From an uncultured candidate division Zixibacteria bacterium (lineage in GTDB: Bacteria; Zixibacteria; MSB-5A5; GN15; FEB-12): DNA of 64,000 bases. Shown here piece by piece: positions 43,358-57,881 of the stretch. The DNA is taken from the NCBI GenBank assembly GCA_963806185.1, contig CAWDXE010000007.1, positions 896,001-960,000 on the forward strand, given 5' to 3'. Under the pieces are notes generated by a model, which saw only the letters and a list, made by a program, of their open reading frames with translations, was not told the origin of the DNA and made no database searches. The translations under genes and the position numbers were made by a program. The first letter of the stretch is position 1, and each line of letters opens with the position of its first letter.

Positions 43358-44701
43358 CTAATGTGATACTTGCTGCAACAGGTCCCAAAAGACCGGACAT
43401 GAAATCGCCACACAGGCGGCATCATCGATAGTAGAAGGACCGGTGGCCAGTCGAGCCGCAATGGCGAAGGCCATGGCGATGCGGTGGTCGCCGAATGATT
43501 TCAGATCGGCACCCTGCAATTCGCGCTGGCCCTCGATCGCCAAGCCGTCCTCGAGCAGGCCAACTTTGACGCCCATGGCACGAAGATTCTCGACGATAGC
43601 GGCGAGGCGGTCGCTCTCTTTCACCTTCAATTCGGCAGCGTCGCGGATGACGGTTGTCCCCTGAGCGTAGGCGCCGATAACGGCGACCATGGGTAGTTCA
43701 TCGATCATGGCGGCGGCGGTCTCACCGTGTACCTTGACGGCCTTGAGCGCTTCACCGGTGACAGTGACATTGCCGCGTGGTTCGCCGGAGACTATCGTCT
43801 TATTCTCGATGATCAGCTTACAACCGGCAGCCTTGAGGTGATTGAGGAATTCAGTGCGGGTCGGGTTAAGGCCGACGTGCTCGACCGTTATGGATTTGCC
43901 TGAGATCGCGGCGAGGCCGAAGAAGAAGGCGGCGGTGGAGAAATCGCCGGGGATATCAATCGAGCCGCCGGCTACCCGAGCACGGGCCGGGAGGATGGAT
44001 TCGCGTTTGAAATCCTCGGGCATCACCATTTTTTTGCGGCGGGGATCGTTGGGATCCTCAGTGAGCACCGGTTTGATATCACGAACGCTGATACCGGTGC
44101 CAAGATAACCGAGCATGATTTCGGTATGATCGCGGCTGAGTTGTTTTTCGCGAATGAGTATGCGGCATCCCGAGGCGAGGCCGGCAAACAAGACGGCCGA
44201 TTTGACCTGCGCGGACGGAATGGGCATGGTGTATTCAAACGGGAGCAGTTTTTTCCCCTGTATACGCATGGGAAGATGGCCGTCAGTAGCATAGCACTCG
44301 GCGCCCATAGCAGTGAGCGGGTCGACGATGCGCTTCATCGGGCGACGCGAGAGTGATTCATCCCCGGCCAGAGTGGCGGATAGTTCGCTGCCGGCGATGA
44401 GGCCGGCCAGGAGTCGCGCGGTCGTGCCGGAGTTGCCGCAATCCACAATCAGGTCGGAAGGGATGTTGAGCGATGCTGGAGGAGTAAGGCGGAGACCTTC
44501 CTCGGTAGTCTCAACGGTCACGCCGAATTGCTGAGCCGCTTTGATGGCGGAATTGGCGTCGGCGGCGTGGGGCGCGTTGGCAACATGTATGGGCCCCGTG
44601 GCCAGGATGGAGAGCAATGCTGCGCGCTGGGCGATTGATTTGTCACCCGGGACGCGCAGAGTTCCGCCGATGCGCCGGGCTGGGGTTATATCGCGACTCA
44701 C
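43358..44701 (-). CDS. aroA: EPSP synthase
   Basis: Motifs PGDKS, GNSGTTAR, SAQVKS, RDHTE, IDELP, KESDR and DHRIAM. Confidence 0.96.
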   Translation of the reverse strand: MSRDITPARRIGGTLRVPGDKSIAQRAALLSILATGPIHVANAPHAADANSAIKAAQQFGVTVETTEEGLRLTPPASLNIPSDLIVDCGNSGTTARLLAGLIAGSELSATLAGDESLSRRPMKRIVDPLTAMGAECYATDGHLPMRIQGKKLLPFEYTMPIPSAQVKSAVLFAGLASGCRILIREKQLSRDHTEIMLGYLGTGISVRDIKPVLTEDPNDPRRKKMVMPEDFKRESILPARARVAGGSIDIPGDFSTAAFFFGLAAISGKSITVEHVGLNPTRTEFLNHLKAAGCKLIIENKTIVSGEPRGNVTVTGEALKAVKVHGETAAAMIDELPMVAVIGAYAQGTTVIRDAAELKVKESDRLAAIVENLRAMGVKVGLLEDGLAIEGQRELQGADLKSFGDHRIAMAFAIAARLATGPSTIDDAACVAISCPVFWDLLQQVSH

Positions 44702-45714
44702 ACGACCGTCCTGTTGAGGGCCTTCGCCATGTTGCGAAGGTCAACGATCATATCGTCGTAGGCGTCGGGCGTGATGGACTGCAGGCCGTCAGAGAGGGCG
44801 GATTCCGGATCAGAGTGTACCTCGACCATAAGGCCGTGAGCGCCGACAGCCAGCGAAGCAAGTGACATGGGGAGCACTTTGTCTTTGCGGCCGGTGCCGT
44901 GGCTGGGGTCGGCAATGATCGGCAGGTGGCTCATCTTCTTAATGAAGGGAATGGCGGCCAGATCAAGCGTGTTACGGGTGTGATCGGCCAGGGTGCGAAT
45001 ACCGCGCTCGCAAAGGATGACCTGTTTGTTGCCTTCGACCATGATGTATTCGGCGGCCATCAGTAATTCTTCGAGTGTCGCACTCATGCCGCGTTTGAGC
45101 AGGACGGGTCGTTTCTGGCGTCCGGCACGGCGAAGCAGGGAATAATTCTGCATGTTGCGGGCACCGATTTGAATGATATCGGCGTAATCGGCAACCATGT
45201 CGATGGTTTCCGTATCAATCGCTTCGGTGACGATTTTGAGTCCGAATTTCTCCCGAACCTCGGCGAGAATTTTCAGCCCCTCCTCCCCCAGCCCCTGAAA
45301 AGTGTATGGCGACGTGCGCGGTTTGAAGGCGCCGCCCCGGAAGATTTTCGTACCGGCTCGGGCAACTCGCTCGGCAACCCGGAAGGTTTGCTCGCGTGAT
45401 TCCACCGAGCAGGGGCCGGCCATGATGATGAATTCCGAGCCACCGATTTTGACACCGTCGATATCGACGATGGTATCGTTTTGACTGAATTCCCGGTTGG
45501 CCAGTTTGTAGGGCTGGGTGACCTGAATGATGTTGCGGACGCCGGGCAGACCAAGAATGTGGTCAGCGTCAATCTGAGCCTTGTTACCGGTGATCCCGAT
45601 GGCGGTGCGCTGAGCGCCGGGCATGGGGTGAGCAGTGAGACCCATTCGTTCTATTTCGCGACAGACCCGGTCGACCATATCGACCGAGGCATTGGCTTCC
45701 ATGACAATGAGCAT
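44698..45714 (-). CDS. aroF: DAHP synthase type I-beta with N-terminal regulatory domain
   Basis: Motifs AGPCSVE, KPRTSPY, QIGARNMQN, LCERGIR and DPSH; AGGAG SD. Confidence 0.95.
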   Translation of the reverse strand: MLIVMEANASVDMVDRVCREIERMGLTAHPMPGAQRTAIGITGNKAQIDADHILGLPGVRNIIQVTQPYKLANREFSQNDTIVDIDGVKIGGSEFIIMAGPCSVESREQTFRVAERVARAGTKIFRGGAFKPRTSPYTFQGLGEEGLKILAEVREKFGLKIVTEAIDTETIDMVADYADIIQIGARNMQNYSLLRRAGRQKRPVLLKRGMSATLEELLMAAEYIMVEGNKQVILCERGIRTLADHTRNTLDLAAIPFIKKMSHLPIIADPSHGTGRKDKVLPMSLASLAVGAHGLMVEVHSDPESALSDGLQSITPDAYDDMIVDLRNMAKALNRTVV

Positions 45715-45789
45715 CGAAAACTCCTGACCAATCAGGCGGTTGAAAATTTCCTGGTCTTCCCGCCTGTCAGTTGTGTGACCGAGCAATCG

Positions 45790-47601
45790 CTACATCTCCT
45801 CCGGCGCCTGAAGTCCGAGCAGATATAGGCCTTCCTTCAGCACGATGCGAACGGACTCGACCAGCGCAATACGCGCGGCTGAGAGTTCAGCGTTATCGGA
45901 AATAATTTTGTCAATGCGACCCGCGGCATCCTTGCGCTGGTACACCTTGTTAAACGCGCCGGACAGTCGAATCAGATACGTGACCAGCGGGTACGGGTCG
46001 TATTGGGAGGCGGCGTCGTCGACAGCGGCCGGAAAATCGGCCAGCAGTTCGACGACGCGCTGTTCTTCCTCGAAATCGAGCAAAGCGTAATTGACATTCG
46101 CTTTGACCGGCTGCCCGTAATTGCGAATGAGCGCGCAAAGACGGGCATGAGTGTACTGCAGGTAGGGGCCGGTTTCGCCCTCGAAATTGAGGACATCGTC
46201 CCAGACGAAGTTGACGTCTTTCAGGCGACGCACGGAGAGTTGGGAATACGTGACCGCGCCGACGCCGACCATACGAGCGACGCTCGTCGATGTTGGCCAG
46301 CCCGGGGTTCTTCTCCTTGATGCGGGCCTTGACCAGCGAGATGGCCTCGCCGAGCAGATTATCAAGCAGAATGATATTGCCACGGCGGGTGGACATTGAC
46401 TTGTCGCCGAATTTCACCCAGCCGAATTCGATATGTTTCACACGACCGGTCATCCGCTTGTCCGGCGGCTGGTGTCTCGGCTTCTTCAAGCATGGCGATC
46501 ACTTTGAGACACTGGCGGAAGTGATCGGCTTGGGACGAACCCACGACGTAAAGTGATTCGTTGAAGTGATACTGTTTCCCAACGCCAGATGAGGCCGGCG
46601 AGATCGCGGGTCAGGTAGAGTGTGGCGCCATCGGCCCGCTTGAGCAATGCGGGCGGAAGGTTCGGATCTTTCAGATCAACAATGAGCGCACCGCGTGAGA
46701 CGGAGGTGAGGCCGACTTTTTCGAGCCGTTTGACGACTGCTTCCATCTTGTCGTTCAGGAAGGATTCGCCGTAGACGAGATCGAATTCAACGCCGAGCAT
46801 GGTGTAGACGCGGTCAAATTCTTCATGCGAGATGCGTTTGAGTTCCTCCCAGAGACGAGTGGCGTCGGGATCGCCATCCTCAAGATTCTTGAAGGCCGTG
46901 CGCGCCTGATCGTCAAGCGTAGGATCCTTCTCGGCCTCGACATGAAAGCGGACATAGAGGGCGAGCAGTTTCTGGACGGCGTTACCCTGCAGAGTGTCAG
47001 GCGTCCCCCATTTATTAAAGGCGACGATCATTTTGCCGAACTGAGTGCCCCAGTCGCCGGGGTAGTTGATGCCGACGACGGTGTAGCCGAGTTTGCGGAA
47101 AATACGTCGGAGCGAGTTGCCGATGACGGTCGTGCGGAGGTGTCCGACGCCGAACGGCTTGGCGATGTTGGGAGAAGAGTACTCCACCAGGTTTGTCTTC
47201 CCGGCGCCGACAGTGGAGTTACCGTAGCTGGATTGCTCGGTGAGAATTCGGGTGATGGTTTCGGCGGTCAGTTTGGTGGCGTTGACTTCCGCGTTGAGAA
47301 AGCCAGAGACGCCGCGACAAAGGATGGTCGAGTGGCCGGAGGCGCTCAGGAGCCGATTGGCTTCATCTGCGACTTTAATGGCAATGTCCATCGGCTTGTC
47401 GTTAAGTAACTTAACGAACTTGAAAACTGGAAAGGCAAAACGGCCCAAGCGGGGGTCTTTGGGCTTTTCGAGACCCTCATAGATACTGTCGGGCGTTAGC
47501 ATACCGCTCGCACCGTTAGCAAAAGCGTCGGGATATACAGCCCGAAACGCTGTGGCGAGGGCGTTGGCAAACTCAACTCTGTATTTATCTTTTGCTTCCA
47601 T
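45790..47601 (-). CDS. argS: Arginine--tRNA ligase, with three apparent +1 indels (about 46575, 46476 and 46282)
   Basis: Motifs EYSSPNIAKPFGVGHLR, GDWGTQFG, YLTRD, MSTRRGN, FEGETGPYLQYTHAR and LGLQAPEEM across successive frames. Confidence 0.95.
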
Positions 47602-47651
47602 AATGCTCTTGGAATGGGCAAATATCGGCCCATCTGTTCCACTTGGCAATG

Positions 47652-48460
47652 TCAATCTTCGCTCCCGGCCGGATGGTCAATGGCCCGACGGAGATCGGTT
47701 AGAAATGCACCAACACGCGTGAGATTCCCTTTGCCCGTCGCGTCTTTGGGGTCAATCTGGCGAACAATTGCCGAGCCTACGACGACACCGTCGGCGGACT
47801 GACATAGCCGGCGGGCACCGACGGCATCAGAGACGCCGAAACCAGCAACAAACGGCTTGGTCAGTTGCCGTTTAAGGCGAGCGAGATATTCGTCGGTCGA
47901 ATCGTCAAACTGTGCAGCTCGGCCGGTGACGCCGGTGACGGTGACGGCGTAAACAAAATCGGTGGAGTGTTTGTCGATCATCCGCATGCGAGCCGGCGTC
48001 GAGGTGGGCGATACGAGAAAGATCGAAGCCAGGCAACTGGTCGCGAGAAGCGAGCGAAGTTCGGCGGATTCGTCAACCGGAAGATCCGGGATGATGAACC
48101 CGTCGACACCGTGACGGGCGGCGTCCAGCACAAACCGTTCGAGGCCGTAGGCGAGGAGCGGGTTGAAGTAGCCCATCAAAACTATGGGGATATTGCTCCC
48201 GGTGCGCACGTGACTCGCTACTTCCAACGAGTGCCTCAGAGTTACACCGTTCTGCAAGGCGACGTGCGAGGACAACTGGATATCGGGACCGTCGGCCAAC
48301 GGGTCGGAGAAGGGCATGCCAAGTTCAAGCATATCCGCTCCGGAGGCGATGGCAATCTCGGCCAATCGCCTTGACTGATCGATGGTCGGGTAGCCGACGG
48401 TGAGAAACGGCACGAGCAGTTTCCGGTTGCCTCGAGATGAGAGGGTGTGCGCGATGCGGC

Positions 48461-48464
<4 letters not shown>
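47652..48464 (-). CDS. trpA: Tryptophan synthase alpha chain
   Basis: Motifs [30 protein letters not shown] and DGVVVGSA. Confidence 0.97.
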
Positions 48465-49649
<1,185 letters not shown>

Positions 49650-49660
<11 letters not shown>

Positions 49661-50273
49661 AGCGAATCCTGTCGCAAACTCGCATGAAGCGAGTGAGTTT
49701 GACTTTCGATTTGATTCCGGGTGCCGACTCGACGCTGGAGTTGACATCAACGATGAGCGGCCGGAAGAGGCGCACGCCTTCCTCGACATTCTGAGCATTG
49801 ATCCCACCGGCCAGCATCAAGTTGGGCGTGGCTTTGCGTGGGCGAGCGGGCCAATCAAATTGCCGGCCAGTGCCACCGAGTTCGCCTTCGGACTGGTTAT
49901 CGAACATGACAATGTCGGCCGCAGTCCGAGGAGTCCGCGTGGTATTACCATCGAACGCCTTGATCACTTTGAAGCCCGCGGCGCGGACGGCGCGAATATC
50001 GGACTCAGTTTGAGCGCCGTGGAGTTGAACGAAGTCCAGGTGCAGCAGTGAAGCACGTTTGATGATGCTGTTTGCAGTGTCGTGTACAAAGACACCAACA
50101 CGGTGGACCATCGGCGGCAACGGGTCGAGAATTGCCTTCGCCTGTTGCATCGTTACAACGCGTGGAGAGCCGGTGTAGAATATCACGCCAATGAGGTCGA
50201 CGCCGAGAGTGGCGGCGAGAACGGCGTCTTGTGGGCGGGTGACGCCGCAGATTTTGATGCGGAATCGGTTCAT
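49650..50273 (-). CDS. trpF: Phosphoribosylanthranilate isomerase
   Basis: Motifs IKICG, SPR, VQLHG, GGTG..FDW, LAGG and ESAPGIK. Confidence 0.96.
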
Positions 50274-51043
50274 GCGCCCCTCAGAAATTTCAAGTGCGCG
50301 ACTGGATCGGGGGCAGTCATGAGAGCCTCGCCGATGAGAAACGCGTCAAAGCCGGCGGACCGGAGCCGGGAAATGTCGGCTCGTGTGGTGATGCCGGATT
50401 CGGCAACTTTGAGTGTGTGTTTGGGAATCAGCGCCGCCAGCCGCTCGGCTGTGTCGAGCGAAACGGTGAAATCATCGAGATTGCGGCTGTTTACACCGAT
50501 AATTGCGCAGCCGGAGTTCACGGCGATCTCCAATTCCTTTTCATTGTGAACTTCCACCAAGCAATCAAGACCGATCTCACCCGCGGCAAGCAAGTAATCC
50601 GTCAGTTGTGCCGGTGTGAGCAGGCGCACAATCAGTAGAACGGCATCGGCCCGCATAAGGCGGGCATAATACACCTGGTATTCGTCGACGACGAAATCTT
50701 TGCAGAGCACGGGCAAGCCGGAGATATCAGCGACAAGCTGCAGGTATTCAGGGCGGCCCATGAAATGGCGTTGCTCAGTGAGAACGGAGATGGCTGCCGC
50801 ACCGCCATCATGGTAGTGCTTAGCGATTGCCGCGGGGTCGAATGTGTGTGCGAGAAGGCCCTTCGAAGGCGAAGCCTGTTTGATTTCGGCGATTATGCGG
50901 GTACCGTCACCGACCAGGGACTTTCGAAAGGAGTGGCTCGCAGGGGTCGGCAAATCATTTACGAAAGTGGTGAGCGGGCGAGTCCGCTTGAGGGCGTCGA
51001 CCTCTTCGCGACGGTGGTTGGCTATGGTTTCCAGAATGTTCAT
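50270..51043 (-). CDS. trpC: Indole-3-glycerol phosphate synthase
   Basis: Motifs IAEIKQASPSKG, SVLTE, KDF, LVEVH, GVN.RNL and AESGI. Confidence 0.96.
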   Translation of the reverse strand: MNILETIANHRREEVDALKRTRPLTTFVNDLPTPASHSFRKSLVGDGTRIIAEIKQASPSKGLLAHTFDPAAIAKHYHDGGAAAISVLTEQRHFMGRPEYLQLVADISGLPVLCKDFVVDEYQVYYARLMRADAVLLIVRLLTPAQLTDYLLAAGEIGLDCLVEVHNEKELEIAVNSGCAIIGVNSRNLDDFTVSLDTAERLAALIPKHTLKVAESGITTRADISRLRSAGFDAFLIGEALMTAPDPVAHLKFLRGA

Positions 51044-51044
51044 C

Positions 51045-52367
51045 TCAACCCTCACGCTCCGGAATGTACCAACCACTTCCCTTTTCCCGGCGCTGTTCGA
51101 TCGACCTGAAGAACGAGAAGTAGAGAAGTGAGGCGAGCAGGTATAGACCACTGGCGATATTCAGGGTGAGTGAGTAGCCGTACGTCTCAATCAAGTGGCC
51201 GCCGACAGCAACGGCGATCATCCAGGAGCCGGTCCAGGCGACAGTCAGGAGGGCGTTGACGAAGCCCTGTTCGGACTCGTCCGCGATTTCCATCGCAAGA
51301 TTGGTGGAGAGCGGCCCGGCGAGATTCATAAGGGCGCCGCGAAGGATGAAGGCGAAGACAACCAGTGGCAGGAAATAGCTGTACGCAAGGGTGAGCATGA
51401 ACGGAATCGATGCGACCTGCGTGTATACGACGGTTCGGACCAGGCCGAGTCGTTTCACCAGGAGCGGGCCGGCGAGTGTCCCGATCAGCATGGCCGCTGA
51501 CACGGAAAGGTATACCAGCCCGATGCGGTCGGGCGGAAGGTGAAAGCGGTCCCGGAAGAAGAGGCTGAGAAATGGTATGATCAGACCGGCGCCCAGGCCG
51601 ATCAGGAAATTGATGCTGGTCAATTTCAGATAGAAGCCGCCGCGATGGCGAAAAGTGGCGAGTCGGATTTTGAGCGGGCGGTCGTTAACTTCCGGACCGA
51701 AGGGTTTGATCATCGAAAACGGTATGAGCGCAAGGATACCGACAGCGATACCGAAGTAGAGGGCAATTTGATATCCGAGAATGCTGCTGCCAGTGGCCGA
51801 GGTGATGATCGTGACCAGCTTGCCCGATCCGGCTGATCCAAGCATCCCGGACAAGAGAAGGACGGCAAAGGAGCACGAGAACAGGTGAGTGCGTTCGACT
51901 GGCGTAGAGTTGCGAATGTAGAACGGTCCGCCGGCGACGCGGAAAAATGACCACGAGATACCGGCCAGCAGGGAGAAAGTCACGAGCATGCCCATTTTGG
52001 TGCTGGTAGTTATGAGAAAGCTGGCGACGGCGAACATTACGACAGCGGTGATCAGGAACGGCTTCAGCTTTAAGCGTGAAAAGAGTACGGCCGACGGGAC
52101 AGCCATCAGGGCAATGCCCAATGCGCGGAACGAATTGACAAAGCCAATGTCACCCTCGCCGAATCTCAGTTCCTTGAGGTAGAGATTGAGCAGGAACTGG
52201 TAGACTTCGAAGTTCACCCCCATGAGGAAGGCGCCGATGAGATACAATCGCGCATTCCGCGAAAAGAGGCTGAGGTGGGCCAGGTATTCACGAAGATGGC
52301 CCAGCGGGCCGGAGGGCGGTCGGGACTGGACCGGAATCCGGTCAATGTCGACGGGGAGTGCTATCAT
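51045..52367 (-). CDS. MFS transporter, embedded in the trp operon
   Basis: About 12 hydrophobic helices; motifs LLNLYL, ERTHLFS and LVKRLG; 1-3 nt spacing to trpD and trpC. Confidence 0.85.
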   Translation of the reverse strand: MIALPVDIDRIPVQSRPPSGPLGHLREYLAHLSLFSRNARLYLIGAFLMGVNFEVYQFLLNLYLKELRFGEGDIGFVNSFRALGIALMAVPSAVLFSRLKLKPFLITAVVMFAVASFLITTSTKMGMLVTFSLLAGISWSFFRVAGGPFYIRNSTPVERTHLFSCSFAVLLLSGMLGSAGSGKLVTIITSATGSSILGYQIALYFGIAVGILALIPFSMIKPFGPEVNDRPLKIRLATFRHRGGFYLKLTSINFLIGLGAGLIIPFLSLFFRDRFHLPPDRIGLVYLSVSAAMLIGTLAGPLLVKRLGLVRTVVYTQVASIPFMLTLAYSYFLPLVVFAFILRGALMNLAGPLSTNLAMEIADESEQGFVNALLTVAWTGSWMIAVAVGGHLIETYGYSLTLNIASGLYLLASLLYFSFFRSIEQRREKGSGWYIPEREG

Positions 52368-52370
52368 GGC

Positions 52371-53381
52371 CTACGCTGTGGTGAGTTGAATCCACGCCTG
52401 AAGTTTATGTTTGGCGGCTTCGCTGTCAATCGATTCCAGGGCGATTTTGACGCCATCGCGAATATCCCCTGCTTTTGCTCCGACATAGATCATCGCACCG
52501 GCATTGAAGGCGACGGCGTCGCGATAGGCCGATTTCCGGCCGTCGAGCACGTCGTTGAGAATGCGGGCGTTGGTCGGCGCATCGCCGCCCTCCAGGCTTC
52601 CCGCGGGATGGCGGGTGAGACCGACATCCTCAGGAGCAATGCGCCTGAGCGCCTGACCGTACGGCGAGACCTCGATGTATTCGGTCATGTCAGTGACGGA
52701 GAATTCGTCCAGACCGTCGGTCGAATGCACGACGAGAGCGTGTTTGCAGCCGAGCAGCCGGACGACATCAGCGAGAAGAACCATGAGTGAGCGGTCATAG
52801 ACGCCGATAACCTGACGCTGGACGCCGGCCGGATTGGTGAGCGGTCCGAGCACGTTGAACACGGTGCGAATACCCAGTTCCTTGCGCACCGGTGCGGCGT
52901 GGCGCATCGCCGGATGGAAGCGAGGGGCAAACATGAAGCCAAAGCCGAGTTTCGAAAGGGTTAGCTCTACCTTCATGGGGCCCGGATCGATGTTGCCACC
53001 GGTGCTTTCGAGCAGATCGGCGGAGCCGCACAGAGAGCTAACGGAGCGGTTGCCATGCTTGGCAACGTTGACGCCGGCGGCAGATGCGACAATCGAGGCG
53101 GCGGTCGAGATATTGAACGTGTGAGCGGAATCGCCGCCCGTCCCGCAGCCGTCGACAGCATGGTCCTCGAACATATGAATCCTGACCGCATGGCGTCGCA
53201 TGGAAAGGGCAAAGCCGGCGATCTCCTCGGCCTTCTCCCCTCTTTGTCGGAGAGCGACGAGCAGTCCGGCAATTTGCGCCGGGGTGGCCTGGCCGGTCAT
53301 GATCTGGTCCATGACAATAGCGGCCTCTTCGGTCGACAAAGTGGCGCCACTGAGCACCTGTTTGAGAGCATCTTGTATCAT
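52371..53381 (-). CDS. trpD: Anthranilate phosphoribosyltransferase
   Basis: Motifs CGTGGD, NIST, KHGNRSVSS..GSAD, RTVFN.LGP and DGLDE. Confidence 0.97.
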   Translation of the reverse strand: MIQDALKQVLSGATLSTEEAAIVMDQIMTGQATPAQIAGLLVALRQRGEKAEEIAGFALSMRRHAVRIHMFEDHAVDGCGTGGDSAHTFNISTAASIVASAAGVNVAKHGNRSVSSLCGSADLLESTGGNIDPGPMKVELTLSKLGFGFMFAPRFHPAMRHAAPVRKELGIRTVFNVLGPLTNPAGVQRQVIGVYDRSLMVLLADVVRLLGCKHALVVHSTDGLDEFSVTDMTEYIEVSPYGQALRRIAPEDVGLTRHPAGSLEGGDAPTNARILNDVLDGRKSAYRDAVAFNAGAMIYVGAKAGDIRDGVKIALESIDSEAAKHKLQAWIQLTTA

Positions 53382-53384
53382 AGA

Positions 53385-53951
53385 CTACAGGCTTCTCAGG
53401 AAATTTCGCAGGATCGTCTTGCCGTGGGTGGTCAGGATCGACTCGGGGTGAAACTGCACGCCGACAATCGGAAGCGCGCGGTGCTGCACGCCCATGATGA
53501 CACCGTCGGCCGTGCGCGCAGTCACTGCCAACTCGGCCGGAAGGGTCGCCGGGTCGATGACGAGGGAATGGTAGCGGGTGGCGGTAAACGGTGACGGAAC
53601 GTCACGATAAAGAAACGATTCATCGTGCAGAACTTCGGACGTCTTCCCGTGCATGAGAGTCGGTGCATAAGTGATCCGGGCGCCAAAGACCTGACCGATC
53701 GCCTGGTGCCCGAGACAGATGCCCAAGATGGGTATGCGACCAGCGGCTTTTTCGATCAGCACGGGCATGATGCCCGCGTTCTCGGGACGGCCGGGGCCGG
53801 GTGACAGTACGATGCCGGTCGGATGCTCGTCGAGCAGCGACGCGGCCGTGGCGGCGTCATTGCGGACTACTTTCAGTTCGGCGCCCAATTCGCCGAGGTA
53901 TTGCACGACGTTGTAGGTGAACGAGTCGTAGTTGTCCAGCAGGAGGATCAA
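53385..53951 (-). CDS. trpG: Anthranilate synthase component II (TTG start overlapping the trpE stop)
   Basis: Motifs DNYDSFTYN, SPGPG, GICLGHQ, RYHSL and QFHPES. Confidence 0.95.
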   Translation of the reverse strand: MILLLDNYDSFTYNVVQYLGELGAELKVVRNDAATAASLLDEHPTGIVLSPGPGRPENAGIMPVLIEKAAGRIPILGICLGHQAIGQVFGARITYAPTLMHGKTSEVLHDESFLYRDVPSPFTATRYHSLVIDPATLPAELAVTARTADGVIMGVQHRALPIVGVQFHPESILTTHGKTILRNFLRSL

Positions 53952-55408
53952 ATGTCGACCCCCCGGATAGCGGCAACAGCCGCTTTGGCTTTGTCGATGG
54001 TTTCCTGGTATTCCCGTGTGGGGTTGGAATCGGCAACGATACCGGCACCGGCCTGAACGAAATAGGACTGACTTTTCTTGACGATGGTGCGGATCGCAAT
54101 ACACGAGTCGAGATTGCCCCAGAAATCGAGGTAGGCGATGGAGCCGGCGTAAACACCGCGCCGGGTTGGTTCGAGTTCGTCGATAATTTCCATAGCCCGA
54201 ATCTTCGGGGCACCGGAAACAGTCCCCGCGGGGAAACAGGCAAAGTAGGCGTCGAGGGCACTGATGTCCTTCTTCAAGGTACCCTTGACCGAACTGACGA
54301 GGTGGATGACATGCGAGTATTTCTCAACCTTCATGTTGTCGTGCACACCCACGGAGCCGGGAACGCTGACGCGGCCGATGTCATTGCGGCCAAGGTCGAG
54401 CAGCATGGTATGTTCGGCGATTTCCTTTTCGTCGTTGCGAAGATCAACAATCAGGTGTTCGTCTTCCGCATCAGTTTTGCCGCGCGGCCGCGTTCCGGCG
54501 ATCGGGCGTCCTTCGATCGTGCCATCCTCGATACGAACGAGCATCTCGGGCGACGAGCCGATGACGGCATTGTCGCCAAAATTGAGCAGAAACATATACG
54601 GCGACGGGTTTAGTCGGCGCAGGTTTCGATACACTGACAGAGGGTCGCTTTTGGAGTTGAGACGCCATCTCTGCGACAGGACTACTTGAAGGATGTCGCC
54701 TTCTTTGATATGGTGTTCAGCGCGGCGGACCATGGTCTCGAAGTCGGGGCGGGTTTGCTCGGCGATCATGCGCACCTTTTGCTTTTTGGGTGGCGGCTTC
54801 GGGATACGGAGGGGACGCTGCAGAGCGGAGATGGTCTCTTTCAGGAGACGCTGAGCGCGGGTAATTTTGGCCGCCAGGCCCTTTTGACCTGAGTCGTGAA
54901 GCACGTTGACAATAACGATAATCTCCTGGCGGAGGTGGTCAAAGACGACAATTCGGCTATACAGGCCAAACTGGCATTCGGGCAAGCCGATGGGATCGGG
55001 GCGGGTATCGGGGACTCGTTCAATCCATCGGATCGCATCATAGGAAAAATAGCCGACACCGCCGCCGGTAAATCGAGGCAGACCCTCAATCCGCACGGGC
55101 TGATACACCGAGAAGAGTTCCTTGAGAAATTCGAGCGGGCTGGCGGCGATATGTCGTTCCTTTTTCCCCTGGCGGACGATGACTTGTTTCCAGCGTCCCT
55201 CGATAACGAGAAAGGGATCGACGCCGATGAAGGAGTAGCGGGCCAACTTCTCCCCTCCTTCGACGGATTCAAGCAAGAACGAGTAGGGTCGACCGGACGC
55301 CAGTTTGATATAGGCACCCACCGGGGTTTCGAGATCAGATGGAATACGCGCGAAGACGGGGATCACGTTCCCTTGTTTCGCCAGAGCAGCAATGGCTTTT
55401 GCGGTCAT
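53948..55408 (-). CDS. trpE: Anthranilate synthase component I
   Basis: Motifs LLES, NPSPYM, SSPE, PIAGT, EH.ML.DLGRND, FPAGTVSGAPK and QAGAGIVADS; ATGA overlap with the dapF-like gene. Confidence 0.96.
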   Translation of the reverse strand: MTAKAIAALAKQGNVIPVFARIPSDLETPVGAYIKLASGRPYSFLLESVEGGEKLARYSFIGVDPFLVIEGRWKQVIVRQGKKERHIAASPLEFLKELFSVYQPVRIEGLPRFTGGGVGYFSYDAIRWIERVPDTRPDPIGLPECQFGLYSRIVVFDHLRQEIIVIVNVLHDSGQKGLAAKITRAQRLLKETISALQRPLRIPKPPPKKQKVRMIAEQTRPDFETMVRRAEHHIKEGDILQVVLSQRWRLNSKSDPLSVYRNLRRLNPSPYMFLLNFGDNAVIGSSPEMLVRIEDGTIEGRPIAGTRPRGKTDAEDEHLIVDLRNDEKEIAEHTMLLDLGRNDIGRVSVPGSVGVHDNMKVEKYSHVIHLVSSVKGTLKKDISALDAYFACFPAGTVSGAPKIRAMEIIDELEPTRRGVYAGSIAYLDFWGNLDSCIAIRTIVKKSQSYFVQAGAGIVADSNPTREYQETIDKAKAAVAAIRGVDI

Positions 55409-56253
55409 CGGGTCCACAGGAATTCTCCTTCGCCGATGAATTCGGCCGGTCCGGTGAGTTCGATGATATTCGTTTTGGCGTTCCAGTGCACATGAAGCGA
55501 TCCGGGTCGAAAGACAACTTCGCAGCGGCGATCGACCAGTCCGAGCATGACACCGGCGGCGACGGCGGCCGCCGCTCCCGTACCGGATGAGCCGGTGGGG
55601 CCTGCGCCCCGCTCCCATTCGGCAACTTCCATTTTCTTGCGGCTGACAACACGGACGAATTCGACGTTGGTGGCATTCGGAAACACGGGCGCCTTTTCGA
55701 TTCTGGCTCCCAGTTCCTGCCAGGCAAATTTGAAGGTGTCTACGAGGATGATGGCGTGAGGATTGCCGACGGAGAGGCAAGTCATGCGATGGCGCCGGCC
55801 ATCGACGACGACGGGCGAATTGATGATGGTATAGAGCCGGGACTTCACCGGGATGCGTTTGGCGACGAAATCCGGGGCGCCGATTTCAGCCGTAAACTGG
55901 GGCAATTTTCGTCGTTCTGAAGGGCGAACGGCGTTGATGGTGCCGGCGACCTCGAAGCTGACGGGAGCGGGGCGTTTGGAGAGCCGGGCGAGATGAAGGG
56001 CGGCAATGCGGAGGCCGTTGCCCGACTTTTCGGCCCAGGAGCCGTCGGCGTTGAAAATATCCATTTTCCGGTCGGCTTTTCGGCTTTTCGAGAGGACGAG
56101 GATTCCGTCAGCGCCAATACCCCGGTTGGGGTGACAGATGGCGACGGCAAGTTTTGACCACTGTGCCCGACTGAGGCGCAGACGATCGGCCGGGATCACG
56201 AGAAACGTGTTTTCCAAGCCATGGTATTTAGCAAAAGATATGTTCATAGTCAT
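55405..56253 (-). CDS. dapF: Diaminopimelate epimerase-like protein with Ser at both catalytic Cys positions
   Basis: Motifs GIGADG, FNADGS, EKSGNG (canonical EMCGNG), GNPH, NVEF and ERGAG.TGSSGTG (canonical TLACGTG). Confidence 0.8.
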   Translation of the reverse strand: MTMNISFAKYHGLENTFLVIPADRLRLSRAQWSKLAVAICHPNRGIGADGILVLSKSRKADRKMDIFNADGSWAEKSGNGLRIAALHLARLSKRPAPVSFEVAGTINAVRPSERRKLPQFTAEIGAPDFVAKRIPVKSRLYTIINSPVVVDGRRHRMTCLSVGNPHAIILVDTFKFAWQELGARIEKAPVFPNATNVEFVRVVSRKKMEVAEWERGAGPTGSSGTGAAAAVAAGVMLGLVDRRCEVVFRPGSLHVHWNAKTNIIELTGPAEFIGEGEFLWTR

Positions 56254-56283
56254 TGAATGTTCAATCTTGCCGCTTGCAGGGCA

Positions 56284-56311
56284 ATAAAAAAACCCGCCGA
56301 AGAGGCGGGTT
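56284..56311 (-). terminator. Attenuator terminator upstream of dapF-trpE
   Basis: AACCCGCC-TCTTC-GGCGGGTT followed by TTTTTAT on the minus strand. Confidence 0.9.
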
Positions 56312-56343: not shown

Positions 56344-56475
56344 TTACCGATCGCGCCGCCTCCGAACCGGGACAAAGCTATACCGACGCCACTGCCACAT
56401 CGCCCAAACAACGGCAACATTAAGCAGAAGTGCCGCAACGGCTCCGATCTCTATGGTAATATACGCGTTCATCAT
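56344..56475 (-). CDS. trpL: Trp attenuation leader peptide (43 aa, or 42 aa from the ATG at 56472); absent from the ORF track
   Basis: Translates as MMNAYITIEIGAVAALLLNVAVVWAMWQWRRYSFVPVRRRRDR*. Three TGG codons, GAGGT SD, and the stop lies 32 nt before the terminator stem. Confidence 0.8.
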   Translation of the reverse strand: MMNAYITIEIGAVAALLLNVAVVWAMWQWRRYSFVPVRRRRDR

Positions 56476-56489
56476 TGACCTCAGATATC

Positions 56490-56517
56490 AATATATGTCA
56501 TTTCACGTATTTAGCAA
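56490..56517 (-). promoter_or_regulatory. Putative promoter of the trp leader
   Basis: TTGCTA-N16-TATATT overlapping the end of the upstream aminotransferase gene. Confidence 0.55.
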
Positions 56518-57715
56518 ACAAATTCGCGAGTCGGGCGACGCCTTCATCGATTTGCGCCGGCAGAGCGTTGGAGAAATTGAGCCGGAGCGTGTTTTCACCG
56601 CCGCCGTTGGCAAAAAACGGGGCACCGGGAACGTAGGCCACTTTCAGGTCGACCGCCTGCTGGAAGAGCGCCTGCGCCGAACAATGTTCGGGAAGGGTCA
56701 GCCAGAGGAACAGTCCGCCTTCCGGGCGGGTCCAGGTGATCCCCTTGGGGAAGCGATCCTCAAGAAGTTTCAGCATGAGATTTCGCTTCATGAGGTAATC
56801 GTCACGAATTCGCTGGACGTGCGGTTCAAAGCGGCCGGACTTCATGTACTCAAAGATCATGTACTGGTTGAAGGTGCTGCTGTGCAGATCGGTGAATTGT
56901 TTCACTTTTTCAAGAATGGCCATAAGCTTGCCGGGGCCGACAATCCATCCGACCCGAAGTCCGGGAGTGACGGTTTTGGAGAAGGTTCGGAGAGCGATGA
57001 CTCCGTCTCCGCCCAGACTTTTGAGGCTGGGCAGAGGAGTACCGGCGAATCGGATATAGGCATACGGGTTGTCATCGACGATCGGGACGTGATAGCGCGC
57101 AGCCACAGCGACCAATGCTTTGCGGCGTTCGAGCGACATGGTAATTCCAGTGGGATTCTGGAAATCGGAGATTACGTAGATGAACTTGGGACGATATTGG
57201 CGAAGCCGATCTTCCACCTGATCGACGATCATCCCGTCCTCGTCCATATCCACTGTACAATAGCGGGCCTGGTAGTAGCCGAAGACCTGGAGGGCACCGA
57301 CGTAGGTGGGGTTTTCGGTCAGAATGTAATCGCCGGGATTCAGAAAGGTCCGAGCAAGCATCTCGATACCCTGCTGGGCGCCGGTGGTAATCATGATATT
57401 GTCAGCGGTGGCGTGCCCGCCCTCGGAGGTCTCTCGCTGGGCCAGCAGCTCGCGCAGAGGCGTGATGCCTCGCGTGAGCGTGTACTGCAGAGCGGGGGCA
57501 CCGTAGGAATCGAGCACCTGCGAGCACACAGCTTTGAGATCTTCGAGGGGAAAGAGTTCCGGGGCAGGGAGACCGCCGGCAAACGAAATAACGCCCGGCT
57601 GAGAGGCGAATTTAAGGATTTCGCGAATGACGGAGGGCTTCAAGTCGACCACGCCCTGGGTGATCGCCCAACCGTCGATACTCGCGTTTTGTTGAGTCGA
57701 ATCTACGGGATTCAT
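56498..57715 (-). CDS. PLP-dependent aminotransferase (LysN/2-aminoadipate or aromatic transaminase-like)
   Basis: Motifs SVIREILK, ISFAGGLP, TGAQQG, FQNPTG, DNPY, TFSKT.TPGLRVGW and PEGGLF; no HTH. Confidence 0.9.
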   Translation of the reverse strand: MNPVDSTQQNASIDGWAITQGVVDLKPSVIREILKFASQPGVISFAGGLPAPELFPLEDLKAVCSQVLDSYGAPALQYTLTRGITPLRELLAQRETSEGGHATADNIMITTGAQQGIEMLARTFLNPGDYILTENPTYVGALQVFGYYQARYCTVDMDEDGMIVDQVEDRLRQYRPKFIYVISDFQNPTGITMSLERRKALVAVAARYHVPIVDDNPYAYIRFAGTPLPSLKSLGGDGVIALRTFSKTVTPGLRVGWIVGPGKLMAILEKVKQFTDLHSSTFNQYMIFEYMKSGRFEPHVQRIRDDYLMKRNLMLKLLEDRFPKGITWTRPEGGLFLWLTLPEHCSAQALFQQAVDLKVAYVPGAPFFANGGGENTLRLNFSNALPAQIDEGVARLANLFAKYVK

Positions 57716-57881
57716 AATTCTCAATGGTTCCTGTCTGCTTCACAATTGTCTAATATGGTGGAGATCATACGCGGGCAATATAGCCACTTTGACGGTGAGA
57801 GCAACCGCTTCCGGAGAGTGCTATTTCGAGTGGCAGTTTAGTCTTGCCAGCCTTGGGTTGTGTTGCCTACCTTTGAGGTTT

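Follow-up and report, generated by a model that had tools for sequence, protein, structure and literature searches.

What does a DapF-family protein do when both catalytic cysteines of its family are replaced by serine, and why does its gene lie directly ahead of trpE? The question was raised by a 64,000-nucleotide stretch of DNA (the window) from a Zixibacteria assembly (GCA_963806185.1, contig CAWDXE010000007.1, positions 896,001 to 960,000), in which such a gene occupies 55405..56253 on the minus strand, as do all window features described below. A sequence-only reading had proposed either a serine-pair diaminopimelate (DAP) epimerase with altered chemistry or a repurposed isomerase of aromatic metabolism, placed first in a Trp-attenuated operon. 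Our analysis shows that the gene is a real member of the DapF family carrying a known Ser/Ser change, and that its position beside the trp genes is likely incidental. Our tentative reading, to which we give a probability of about 0.45, is that the protein is an active two-base serine-pair epimerase converting home-made L,L-lanthionine to the meso form for peptidoglycan.

The open reading frame (ORF) is intact and has 282 codons. Translation more likely starts at the second ATG, at 56247, because the database protein has 280 amino acids and most relatives have 275-283. The protein scored 196 bits against TIGR00652 (cut-off 115) and also matched PF01678. Its predicted structure (pLDDT 97.5) had Anabaena DapF (9MRO) as best fold match, with TM 0.90 and E 3e-32; the match to the PhzF fold was distant (E 1e-14, 12-14% identity). 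Alignment to 9MRO placed Ser77 (codon TCG, 56023..56025, within EKSGNG) on Anabaena Cys75 and Ser223 (codon TCC, 55585..55587, within GSSGTG) on Cys224. The two catalytic cysteines of a canonical DAP epimerase are therefore absent, and the serine codons reported by the sequence-only reading are confirmed. The motifs that it had listed as retained (FNADGS, GNPH, NVEF and ERG) were all found, together with the variant HGLENT. It had also called for a search for a second, Cys-type dapF; none was found in the source assembly, which is 82% complete and yielded a single PF01678 gene.

The source assembly carries frameshifts elsewhere (in argS), but a sequencing error behind the serine pair was rejected, because the pair is shared by homologues. 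The closest homologues were taken as the best 120 of 5,708 matches; one of these is the window's own protein, and the 119 others were compared. All 119 were Ser/Ser, and Zixibacteria was the source label for most of those bearing a taxon. Over 89 orthologous loci the serine codons were varied (TCC, TCG, TCA, TCT and AGC), and the earlier statement that no single-base error is involved thus holds. Within HGLENT, Asn15 was invariant among the 119 homologues and position 14 highly variable; Thr16 occurred in none of them (Asp in 112, Ser in 7). Judged from this alignment, the HGLENT change is minor.

The gene is nearly universal in its phylum. A DapF-family match was present in 61/61 relatives and in 148 of 151 phylum genomes (Zixibacteria by source names; 149/151 at least 90% complete), nearly always as one copy. 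The catalytic pair was read in 88 orthologues from fetched loci, with locus L132 left out because its ORF was not picked: 61 were Ser/Ser, 13 Cys/Ser, 12 Cys/Cys and 2 Ser/Cys. No residue other than Cys or Ser was found at either site, and never Ala or Gly. A tree of 89 rows built with FastTree, a quick method with the direction of change left uninferred, required 6 changes for the first catalytic position and 5 for the second. Two orthologues inside the Ser/Ser clade, L048 (genome G027) and L025 (genome G005), carry a lone cysteine, as Cys/Ser and Ser/Cys, and are useful natural intermediates. The wider comparison covered 150 representatives of 50%-identity clusters, comprising 103 Cys/Cys, 37 Ser/Ser and 6 mixed proteins and 4 fragments. 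Of the 37 Ser/Ser representatives, 27 formed a separate clade (support 0.98). Twenty members of this clade were looked up and five had a taxon: four were Acidobacteriota, one of them labelled Chloracidobacterium sp., and one was Eisenbacteria.

The repeated changes of state raise the possibility that the protein was kept for binding a ligand or partner with little or no catalysis, its cysteines having drifted to serine after loss of the DAP pathway. The single cysteines inside the Ser/Ser clade point the same way, as do the greatly slowed reactions of related enzymes with engineered Cys-to-Ser changes (PMC11602996) and the non-catalytic role of E. coli DapF with RppH (PMC13728532). However, the occurrence of Cys or Ser alone at both sites in 88/88 orthologues argues that a hydroxyl or thiol is required there, and a natural Ser/Ser DapF is reported to be catalytic (PMC13728532). 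We consider a binding protein improbable.

The residues next to the serines were also compared. Position 76 is basic in 118/119 closest homologues but in only 47/88 orthologues; Lys76 as the general base of all Ser/Ser enzymes was rejected, many of them having Met, Leu, Ile or Trp there. Ser222 is present in 60/88 orthologues, and Ala takes that place in 96/103 Cys/Cys relatives. On these alignments, Ser222 and Lys76 are candidate second-shell changes.

The substrate pocket has changed far less than the catalytic pair. All DAP-binding residues are kept: Asn15, Asn68, Asn79, Asn164, Asn196, Glu214, Arg215 and Thr225, the counterparts of Anabaena Asn13, Asn66, Asn77, Asn164, Asn197, Glu215, Arg216 and Thr226. 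Asn15, Asn68, Asn79, Asn196, Glu214 and Arg215 were found in 88/88 orthologues, Asn164 in 87/88 and Gly47 in 85/88. In Anabaena DapF, the residues matching these asparagines and Glu214 and Arg215 bind both ends of DAP (PMC12039745). Because the residues that hold both amino-acid ends are near-invariant, conservation suggests that the substrate is most likely a diamino diacid. Gly47 corresponds to the Gln44 position, and enzymes with Gly at that position epimerise lanthionine as fast as DAP (PMC12039745). MurE, the ligase that would use the product, was found in 149/151 phylum genomes. An alignment of the source genome's MurE with 49 best-scoring relatives, a choice that favours the consensus, showed the Arg and the DNPR motif in 50/50; DNPR is conserved in meso-DAP ligases (PMC3681970).

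The known pathway that would supply DAP was not found. Neither asd nor dapB was detected in any of the 151 phylum genomes. Matches to the dihydrodipicolinate synthase (DHDPS) family occurred in 7/151 genomes; five were full-length, and three of these were scanned. One scored best as HpaI-not-DapA, though it also exceeded the dapA cut-off, one fell below the cut-off and one gave no hit. No lysA match above cut-off was found in 61 relatives. A conserved LysA-like gene was rejected as a DAP decarboxylase: it is closest to lysine/ornithine decarboxylase and, in the locus tested, lies in a polyamine cluster between speD and speE. Another LysA-like gene, in six genomes, scored 239-274 bits, under the cut-off of 298. 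The LysA-like genes of L097-L099 (262-274 bits, also below cut-off) lie in genomes without asd or dapB, and the one in L097 adjoins a gene whose start resembles an Asp/Glu racemase. In the source genome we found no ddh, no LysX match above cut-off and no aspartate kinase among its two amino acid kinase (AA-kinase) matches, one being a carbamate kinase and the other a gene between tsf and frr that was read as UMP kinase. The same searches found the asd, dapB, dapA and lysA families in 11-14 of 14 control genomes run beside them. Both murI and alr are present. A further ORF (G000:C1:469612-470343; L101/L169) had a weak match to a glutamate-racemase model (53 bits); its start resembles a signal peptide, and NCBIfam models gave no hit at 1e-20.

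By gene content, then, the protein is not a routine DAP epimerase, the known DAP pathway not being found in the phylum, a point missed by the sequence-only reading. The first proposal of that reading, a serine-pair epimerase, fits and has been published for another organism. An ordinary DAP epimerase would require that DAP be made by a route escaping the family models. The DNPR-type MurE and the intact pocket are consistent with such a route, unrelated substitutes for pathway steps are still being discovered (PMC13759103), and the aminotransferase gene upstream of dapF has no assigned substrate. This aminotransferase was rejected as DapL (88 bits; cut-off 593). Against a hidden route, asd, dapB, dapA and lysA would all need replacing, and the same searches found these families in the controls. 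We regard it as less probable even than a binding protein.

Salvage could also bring DAP to the enzyme. In that case a true Ser/Ser DAP epimerase would act on salvaged DAP or wall fragments, possibly imported by the linked major facilitator superfamily (MFS) transporter, and would turn LL-DAP into meso-DAP for MurE. A pocket identical to that of DAP epimerases and a DNPR motif typical of meso-DAP ligases (PMC3681970) agree with this, the published Ser/Ser enzyme is a DapF (PMC13728532), and the MFS gene is kept beside dapF in 37 of 40 near loci. Dependence on wall fragments is known in Fidelibacter (PMC11652737), but the class of Fidelibacter lacks the synthesis genes, whereas murI, alr and murE are kept here. 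In the source genome (82% complete, and the only one searched for these genes) there was no AmpG match and no Mpl match above cut-off; the sole match to the Mpl model was a murC-like gene of the cell-division cluster. Most salvaged DAP would already be in the meso form, which leaves little reason for an epimerase in 148/151 genomes. We hold salvage to be unlikely, yet the strongest competitor of the lanthionine reading.

A possible source of lanthionine was found in nearly every genome. A pyridoxal 5'-phosphate (PLP) enzyme resembling cystathionine beta-synthase (CBS) is present in 150/151 phylum genomes; these proteins score under the TIGR01137 cut-off and are nearer to CBS than to the cysteine synthase 5XEM. 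A standalone copy occurs in 74/83 genomes of the order at a strict threshold. The standalone gene at G000:C4:389528-390569 (L168/L252) has an open frame of ~330-380 codons, with 58-80% N-terminal identity across the order, and its synteny with a gene whose product is probably exported is fixed. We regard the standalone gene as a candidate lanthionine synthase. CBS enzymes produce lanthionine from cysteine (PMC9232105), and Fusobacterium, whose wall depends on such a reaction, cannot do without its CysK-type lanthionine synthase (PMC9600241).

The lanthionine reading is preferred because the pocket is intact, the gene is a near-universal single copy, MurE is of the DNPR type, asd and dapB were not found, and a CBS-like enzyme is kept. 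The CBS-like enzyme would condense two L-cysteines to L,L-lanthionine and H2S. The DapF-family protein would turn L,L-lanthionine into meso-lanthionine, or might act on a related thioether such as cystathionine, with catalysis assigned to Ser77 and Ser223, at the N-termini of helices, on the model of the published Ser/Ser enzyme. The DNPR-type MurE would then add meso-lanthionine to the stem peptide. Experiments have shown that Chloracidobacterium thermophilum, when grown in defined medium, needs both lysine and a source of reduced sulfur (PMC4376005). We propose, a little more hesitantly than for the enzyme itself, that the wall of Zixibacteria, and perhaps that of lysine-auxotrophic Acidobacteriota such as Chloracidobacterium, is based on meso-lanthionine supplied by a CBS-like enzyme and a dedicated lanthionine epimerase derived from DapF.

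Several observations weigh against lanthionine as the substrate. The serine pair is not tied to it, because 12 Cys/Cys and 15 mixed orthologues among the 88 share the same DAP-less phylum. The published Ser/Ser enzyme is described as an Anabaena DAP epimerase (PMC13728532). An equivalent of Gly47 is also present in 103/103 Cys/Cys relatives; on this comparison Gly47 permits lanthionine and does not indicate it. The same line of reasoning did not hold for Fusobacterium: its DapF homologue turned out to racemise histidine, and D,L-lanthionine can be made directly from D- and L-cysteine by lanthionine synthase (PMC11602996 for both). CBS has an ordinary role as well, one copy adjoining a cystathionine lyase gene. 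In the loci read, neither a CBS-like gene nor murE adjoined dapF, and no standalone CBS-like gene adjoined wall genes in 30 loci of ~3.6 kb. The standalone copy is frameshifted in the source assembly. The choice of best-scoring MurE relatives makes the DNPR count less telling, and alternative, non-homologous DAP enzymes may exist.

The substrate is what could matter here, since a free-living phylum keeps MurE and DapF without known DAP synthesis. If lanthionine is used, such walls would occur far outside Fusobacteria, automatic annotations of "DAP epimerase" in these genomes would be wrong, and the protein would be the first dedicated lanthionine epimerase. A literature search, with subscription journals mostly outside it, turned up neither a study of the wall chemistry of Zixibacteria nor one of a dedicated lanthionine epimerase. 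Cys/Cys, Cys/Ser, Ser/Cys and Ser/Ser orthologues at one locus would also show a thiol epimerase becoming thiol-free. The orthologous Cys-to-Ser series is a ready panel for the second-shell changes that let serine act as a base.

The gene neighbourhood accounts for the link with trp. The dapF stop codon and the trpE start codon overlap as ATGA at 55408-55405, which confirms the overlap described earlier. Downstream of dapF lie trpE (53948..55408; TIGR00564), trpG (53385..53954; TIGR00566) and trpD (52371..53381; TIGR01245), each above cut-off, followed by the MFS transporter gene (51045..52367; PF07690). Next come trpC, trpF, trpB and trpA (47652..51151; NCBIfam models, with trpF under its own cut-off), argS (45790..47655; found by tblastn with an intact relative), and aroF, encoding 3-deoxy-D-arabino-heptulosonate 7-phosphate (DAHP) synthase, with aroA (43358..45786; family profile matches). 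The conserved upstream neighbour is the gene for the class I/II PLP aminotransferase (56498..57724). The argS gene is split over three frames, with no intact copy found in the assembly; the split is probably due to assembly indels, because in the query relative argS is one unbroken ORF.

Operon order was surveyed in 40 near loci and 40 further loci, the latter mostly from other orders. The order in near loci was aminotransferase, dapF, then trpE-G-D or the MFS gene directly, then argS, aroF and aroA. The aminotransferase gene, like the MFS gene, was present in 37/40 near loci; further loci had the aminotransferase in 27, argS in 26, aroA in 20 and the MFS gene in 18. Where trp genes were missing, the MFS gene came right after dapF. 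In several families (L056-L072), lexA, a DUF6504 gene and dinB lie directly 5' of the aminotransferase-dapF block. A survey of 50 near and 40 further loci found trpE behind dapF in 25/50 and 8/40, respectively; linkage to trpE is therefore not unique to this genome (33/90), and dapF lacks an adjacent trpE in 57/90 loci. The gene heads an old aromatic supraoperon and its link with trp is positional; its place at the head of the trp operon is likely incidental.

The neighbourhood could nevertheless suit an enzyme that racemises or isomerises some other amino acid, like HisR of Fusobacterium. That histidine racemase is a DapF homologue from a DAP-less genome (PMC11602996), the conserved aminotransferase and MFS neighbours have no assigned substrates, and the gene sits in an aromatic supraoperon. 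However, the HisR pocket lacks a basic residue (PMC11602996), while Glu214, Arg215 and the distal asparagines are invariant here. murI and alr already provide D-Glu and D-Ala, the PhzF fold is a distant match, and the gene persists in loci without an adjacent trpE. Another amino acid is therefore quite improbable as the substrate, if slightly less so than a mere binding role. The aromatic version put forward by the sequence-only reading is a small part of this explanation and is very improbable indeed. We rejected a role in the aromatic pathway because the gene persists without trp neighbours; it is present in 148/151 genomes with trpE adjacent in only 33/90 loci, its pocket is invariant, and its fold match to DapF far exceeds that to PhzF.

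The proposed Trp attenuation fared better, as a feature of the trp genes. Upstream of dapF, a predicted 43-amino-acid leader peptide (56344..56475) contains Trp24, Trp27 and Trp29 (codons at 56406, 56397 and 56391). A predicted antiterminator arm within the leader ORF (56356..56363) can pair over 8 bp with 56308-56301, in the terminator's 5' arm and loop, and an intrinsic-terminator-like structure with a U-tract spans 56286..56311, its 8-bp hairpin lying at 56311-56291. A sigma-70-like site 5' of the leader (56490..56517) has only 9/12 consensus matches (1 found against 0.3 expected). Folding was predicted with ViennaRNA after removal of the ribosome-covered bases. In nascent RNA, the 8-bp antiterminator had a probability of 0.96-1.0 with the ribosome stalled at any Trp codon; in full-length RNA, only a stall at Trp29 left it competitive (0.51). 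When the ribosome was placed at the leader stop codon, the terminator formed. The whole leader folded no better than shuffled sequences (z -0.97), and only the stall-dependent folds are informative on attenuation. These predicted folds fit attenuation provided that the RNA folds as it is transcribed.

A short ORF containing two Trp codons close together preceded dapF in 13/33 trpE-adjacent loci and 1/57 others; the nominal p of 4e-6 is overstated, because the scanned lengths differ and the genomes are kin. The other 20/33 trpE-adjacent relatives show no leader. Many relatives have terminator-like hairpins ahead of dapF, whether trp genes are present or not. Trp attenuation is thus plausible from the predicted anatomy and not confined to the source genome, and the attenuator follows the trp genes, not dapF. 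It would serve the trp genes and at most modulate dapF. The leaders of L042, L054, L070-L072, L132 and L135 hold Tyr-Trp clusters (e.g. YWW, WYW), with sequences that look unrelated between families; sensing by the supraoperon may extend beyond a single aromatic amino acid. In L134 (genome G119), a Trp-rich leader-like ORF lies 5' of dapF with no trpE behind, and is possibly a remnant of trp loss.

A promoter of dapF's own, downstream of the terminator, was part of what the sequence-only reading said would count against it. In the window, a possible leaderless promoter (56256..56284; TTGCCC-17-AACATT) ends 8 nt before the ATG at 56247, and 19/200 shuffles scored as well on our own simple score. 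In 18/50 near loci, a site of promoter type between the terminator and the start codon scored above shuffles (p<=0.05), so many relatives have such a site; a Shine-Dalgarno-like word preceded dapF in 2/50. Loci L055-L060 and L158 have a near-consensus TTTACA-16-TATYTT (or TAATTT) right after the terminator U-tract and 6-7 nt before the ATG, and likely produce leaderless mRNAs.

Outside the phylum, a homologue scan of a contig collection returned two Clostridium loci only, both Cys/Cys, and a plasmid search gave no acidobacterial record among the matches listed. In a metagenome set of 80 loci, 11 of which had no class by sequence pattern, a dapL-family gene flanked 19/32 Cys/Cys and 0/37 Ser/Ser loci; this contrast is weak, many loci being short and the two groups differing in taxon. 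In the Ser/Ser loci of acidobacterial type (L176-L203), a methylthioadenosine phosphorylase gene and a conserved unnamed gene precede dapF, not lysine genes.

The serine pair itself is already known in print, as the sequence-only reading had allowed. Lamer et al. 2025 (J Mol Biol 437:169375), as cited in PMC13728532, described DapF enzymes with two catalytic serines; by the same account, Anabaena sp. YBS01 holds both a Cys/Cys and a Ser/Ser DapF, and changing the serines to cysteines inactivated its Ser/Ser enzyme. One section of a 2021 review lists Cys/Cys and Cys/Thr pairs only for such amino-acid racemases (PMC8142540), and among 17 PDB sequence matches no Ser/Ser enzyme was identifiable by name. 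The protein of the window resembles the YBS01 enzyme, as described, in its DapF fold and in serines at both catalytic positions (PMC13728532). Unlike in YBS01, the Ser/Ser gene is the sole dapF found, in a phylum where asd and dapB were not found.

With canonical DapF (TIGR00652; Anabaena 9MRO, Arabidopsis 3EJX and H. influenzae 1GQZ), the protein shares the fold (TM 0.90) and all substrate-contact residues, and with the lanthionine-tolerant plant and cyanobacterial enzymes it shares Gly at the Gln44 position. It differs from canonical DapF in the replaced cysteine pair, in Lys for Met before the first catalytic residue and Ser for Ala before the second, and in having no DAP pathway found around it. 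PhzF has a DapF-like fold but is far less similar (12-14% identity, E 1e-14 vs 3e-32 for DapF), and the DapF motifs are kept here. The closest known form of attenuation is the ribosome-mediated type of E. coli trpL. The predicted leader shares with trpL the clustered Trp codons, the antiterminator arm within the leader ORF and the terminator with its U-tract; unlike trpL, it is long and hydrophobic with spaced Trp codons, and the first gene it would control is dapF. The closest parallel for the proposed chemistry is the lanthionine wall system of Fusobacterium nucleatum (CysK1/FN1220), in which likewise no DAP pathway is found, a PLP enzyme of the CysK/CBS family is present and a DapF-fold gene is kept. 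The PLP enzymes of Zixibacteria differ from the F. nucleatum lanthionine synthase in being nearer to CBS than to 5XEM. HisR (FN1732) of F. nucleatum, a histidine racemase with a Cys/Cys pair, lacks basic residues in the pocket, whereas the DapF pocket is intact here, with Arg215 in 88/88 orthologues.

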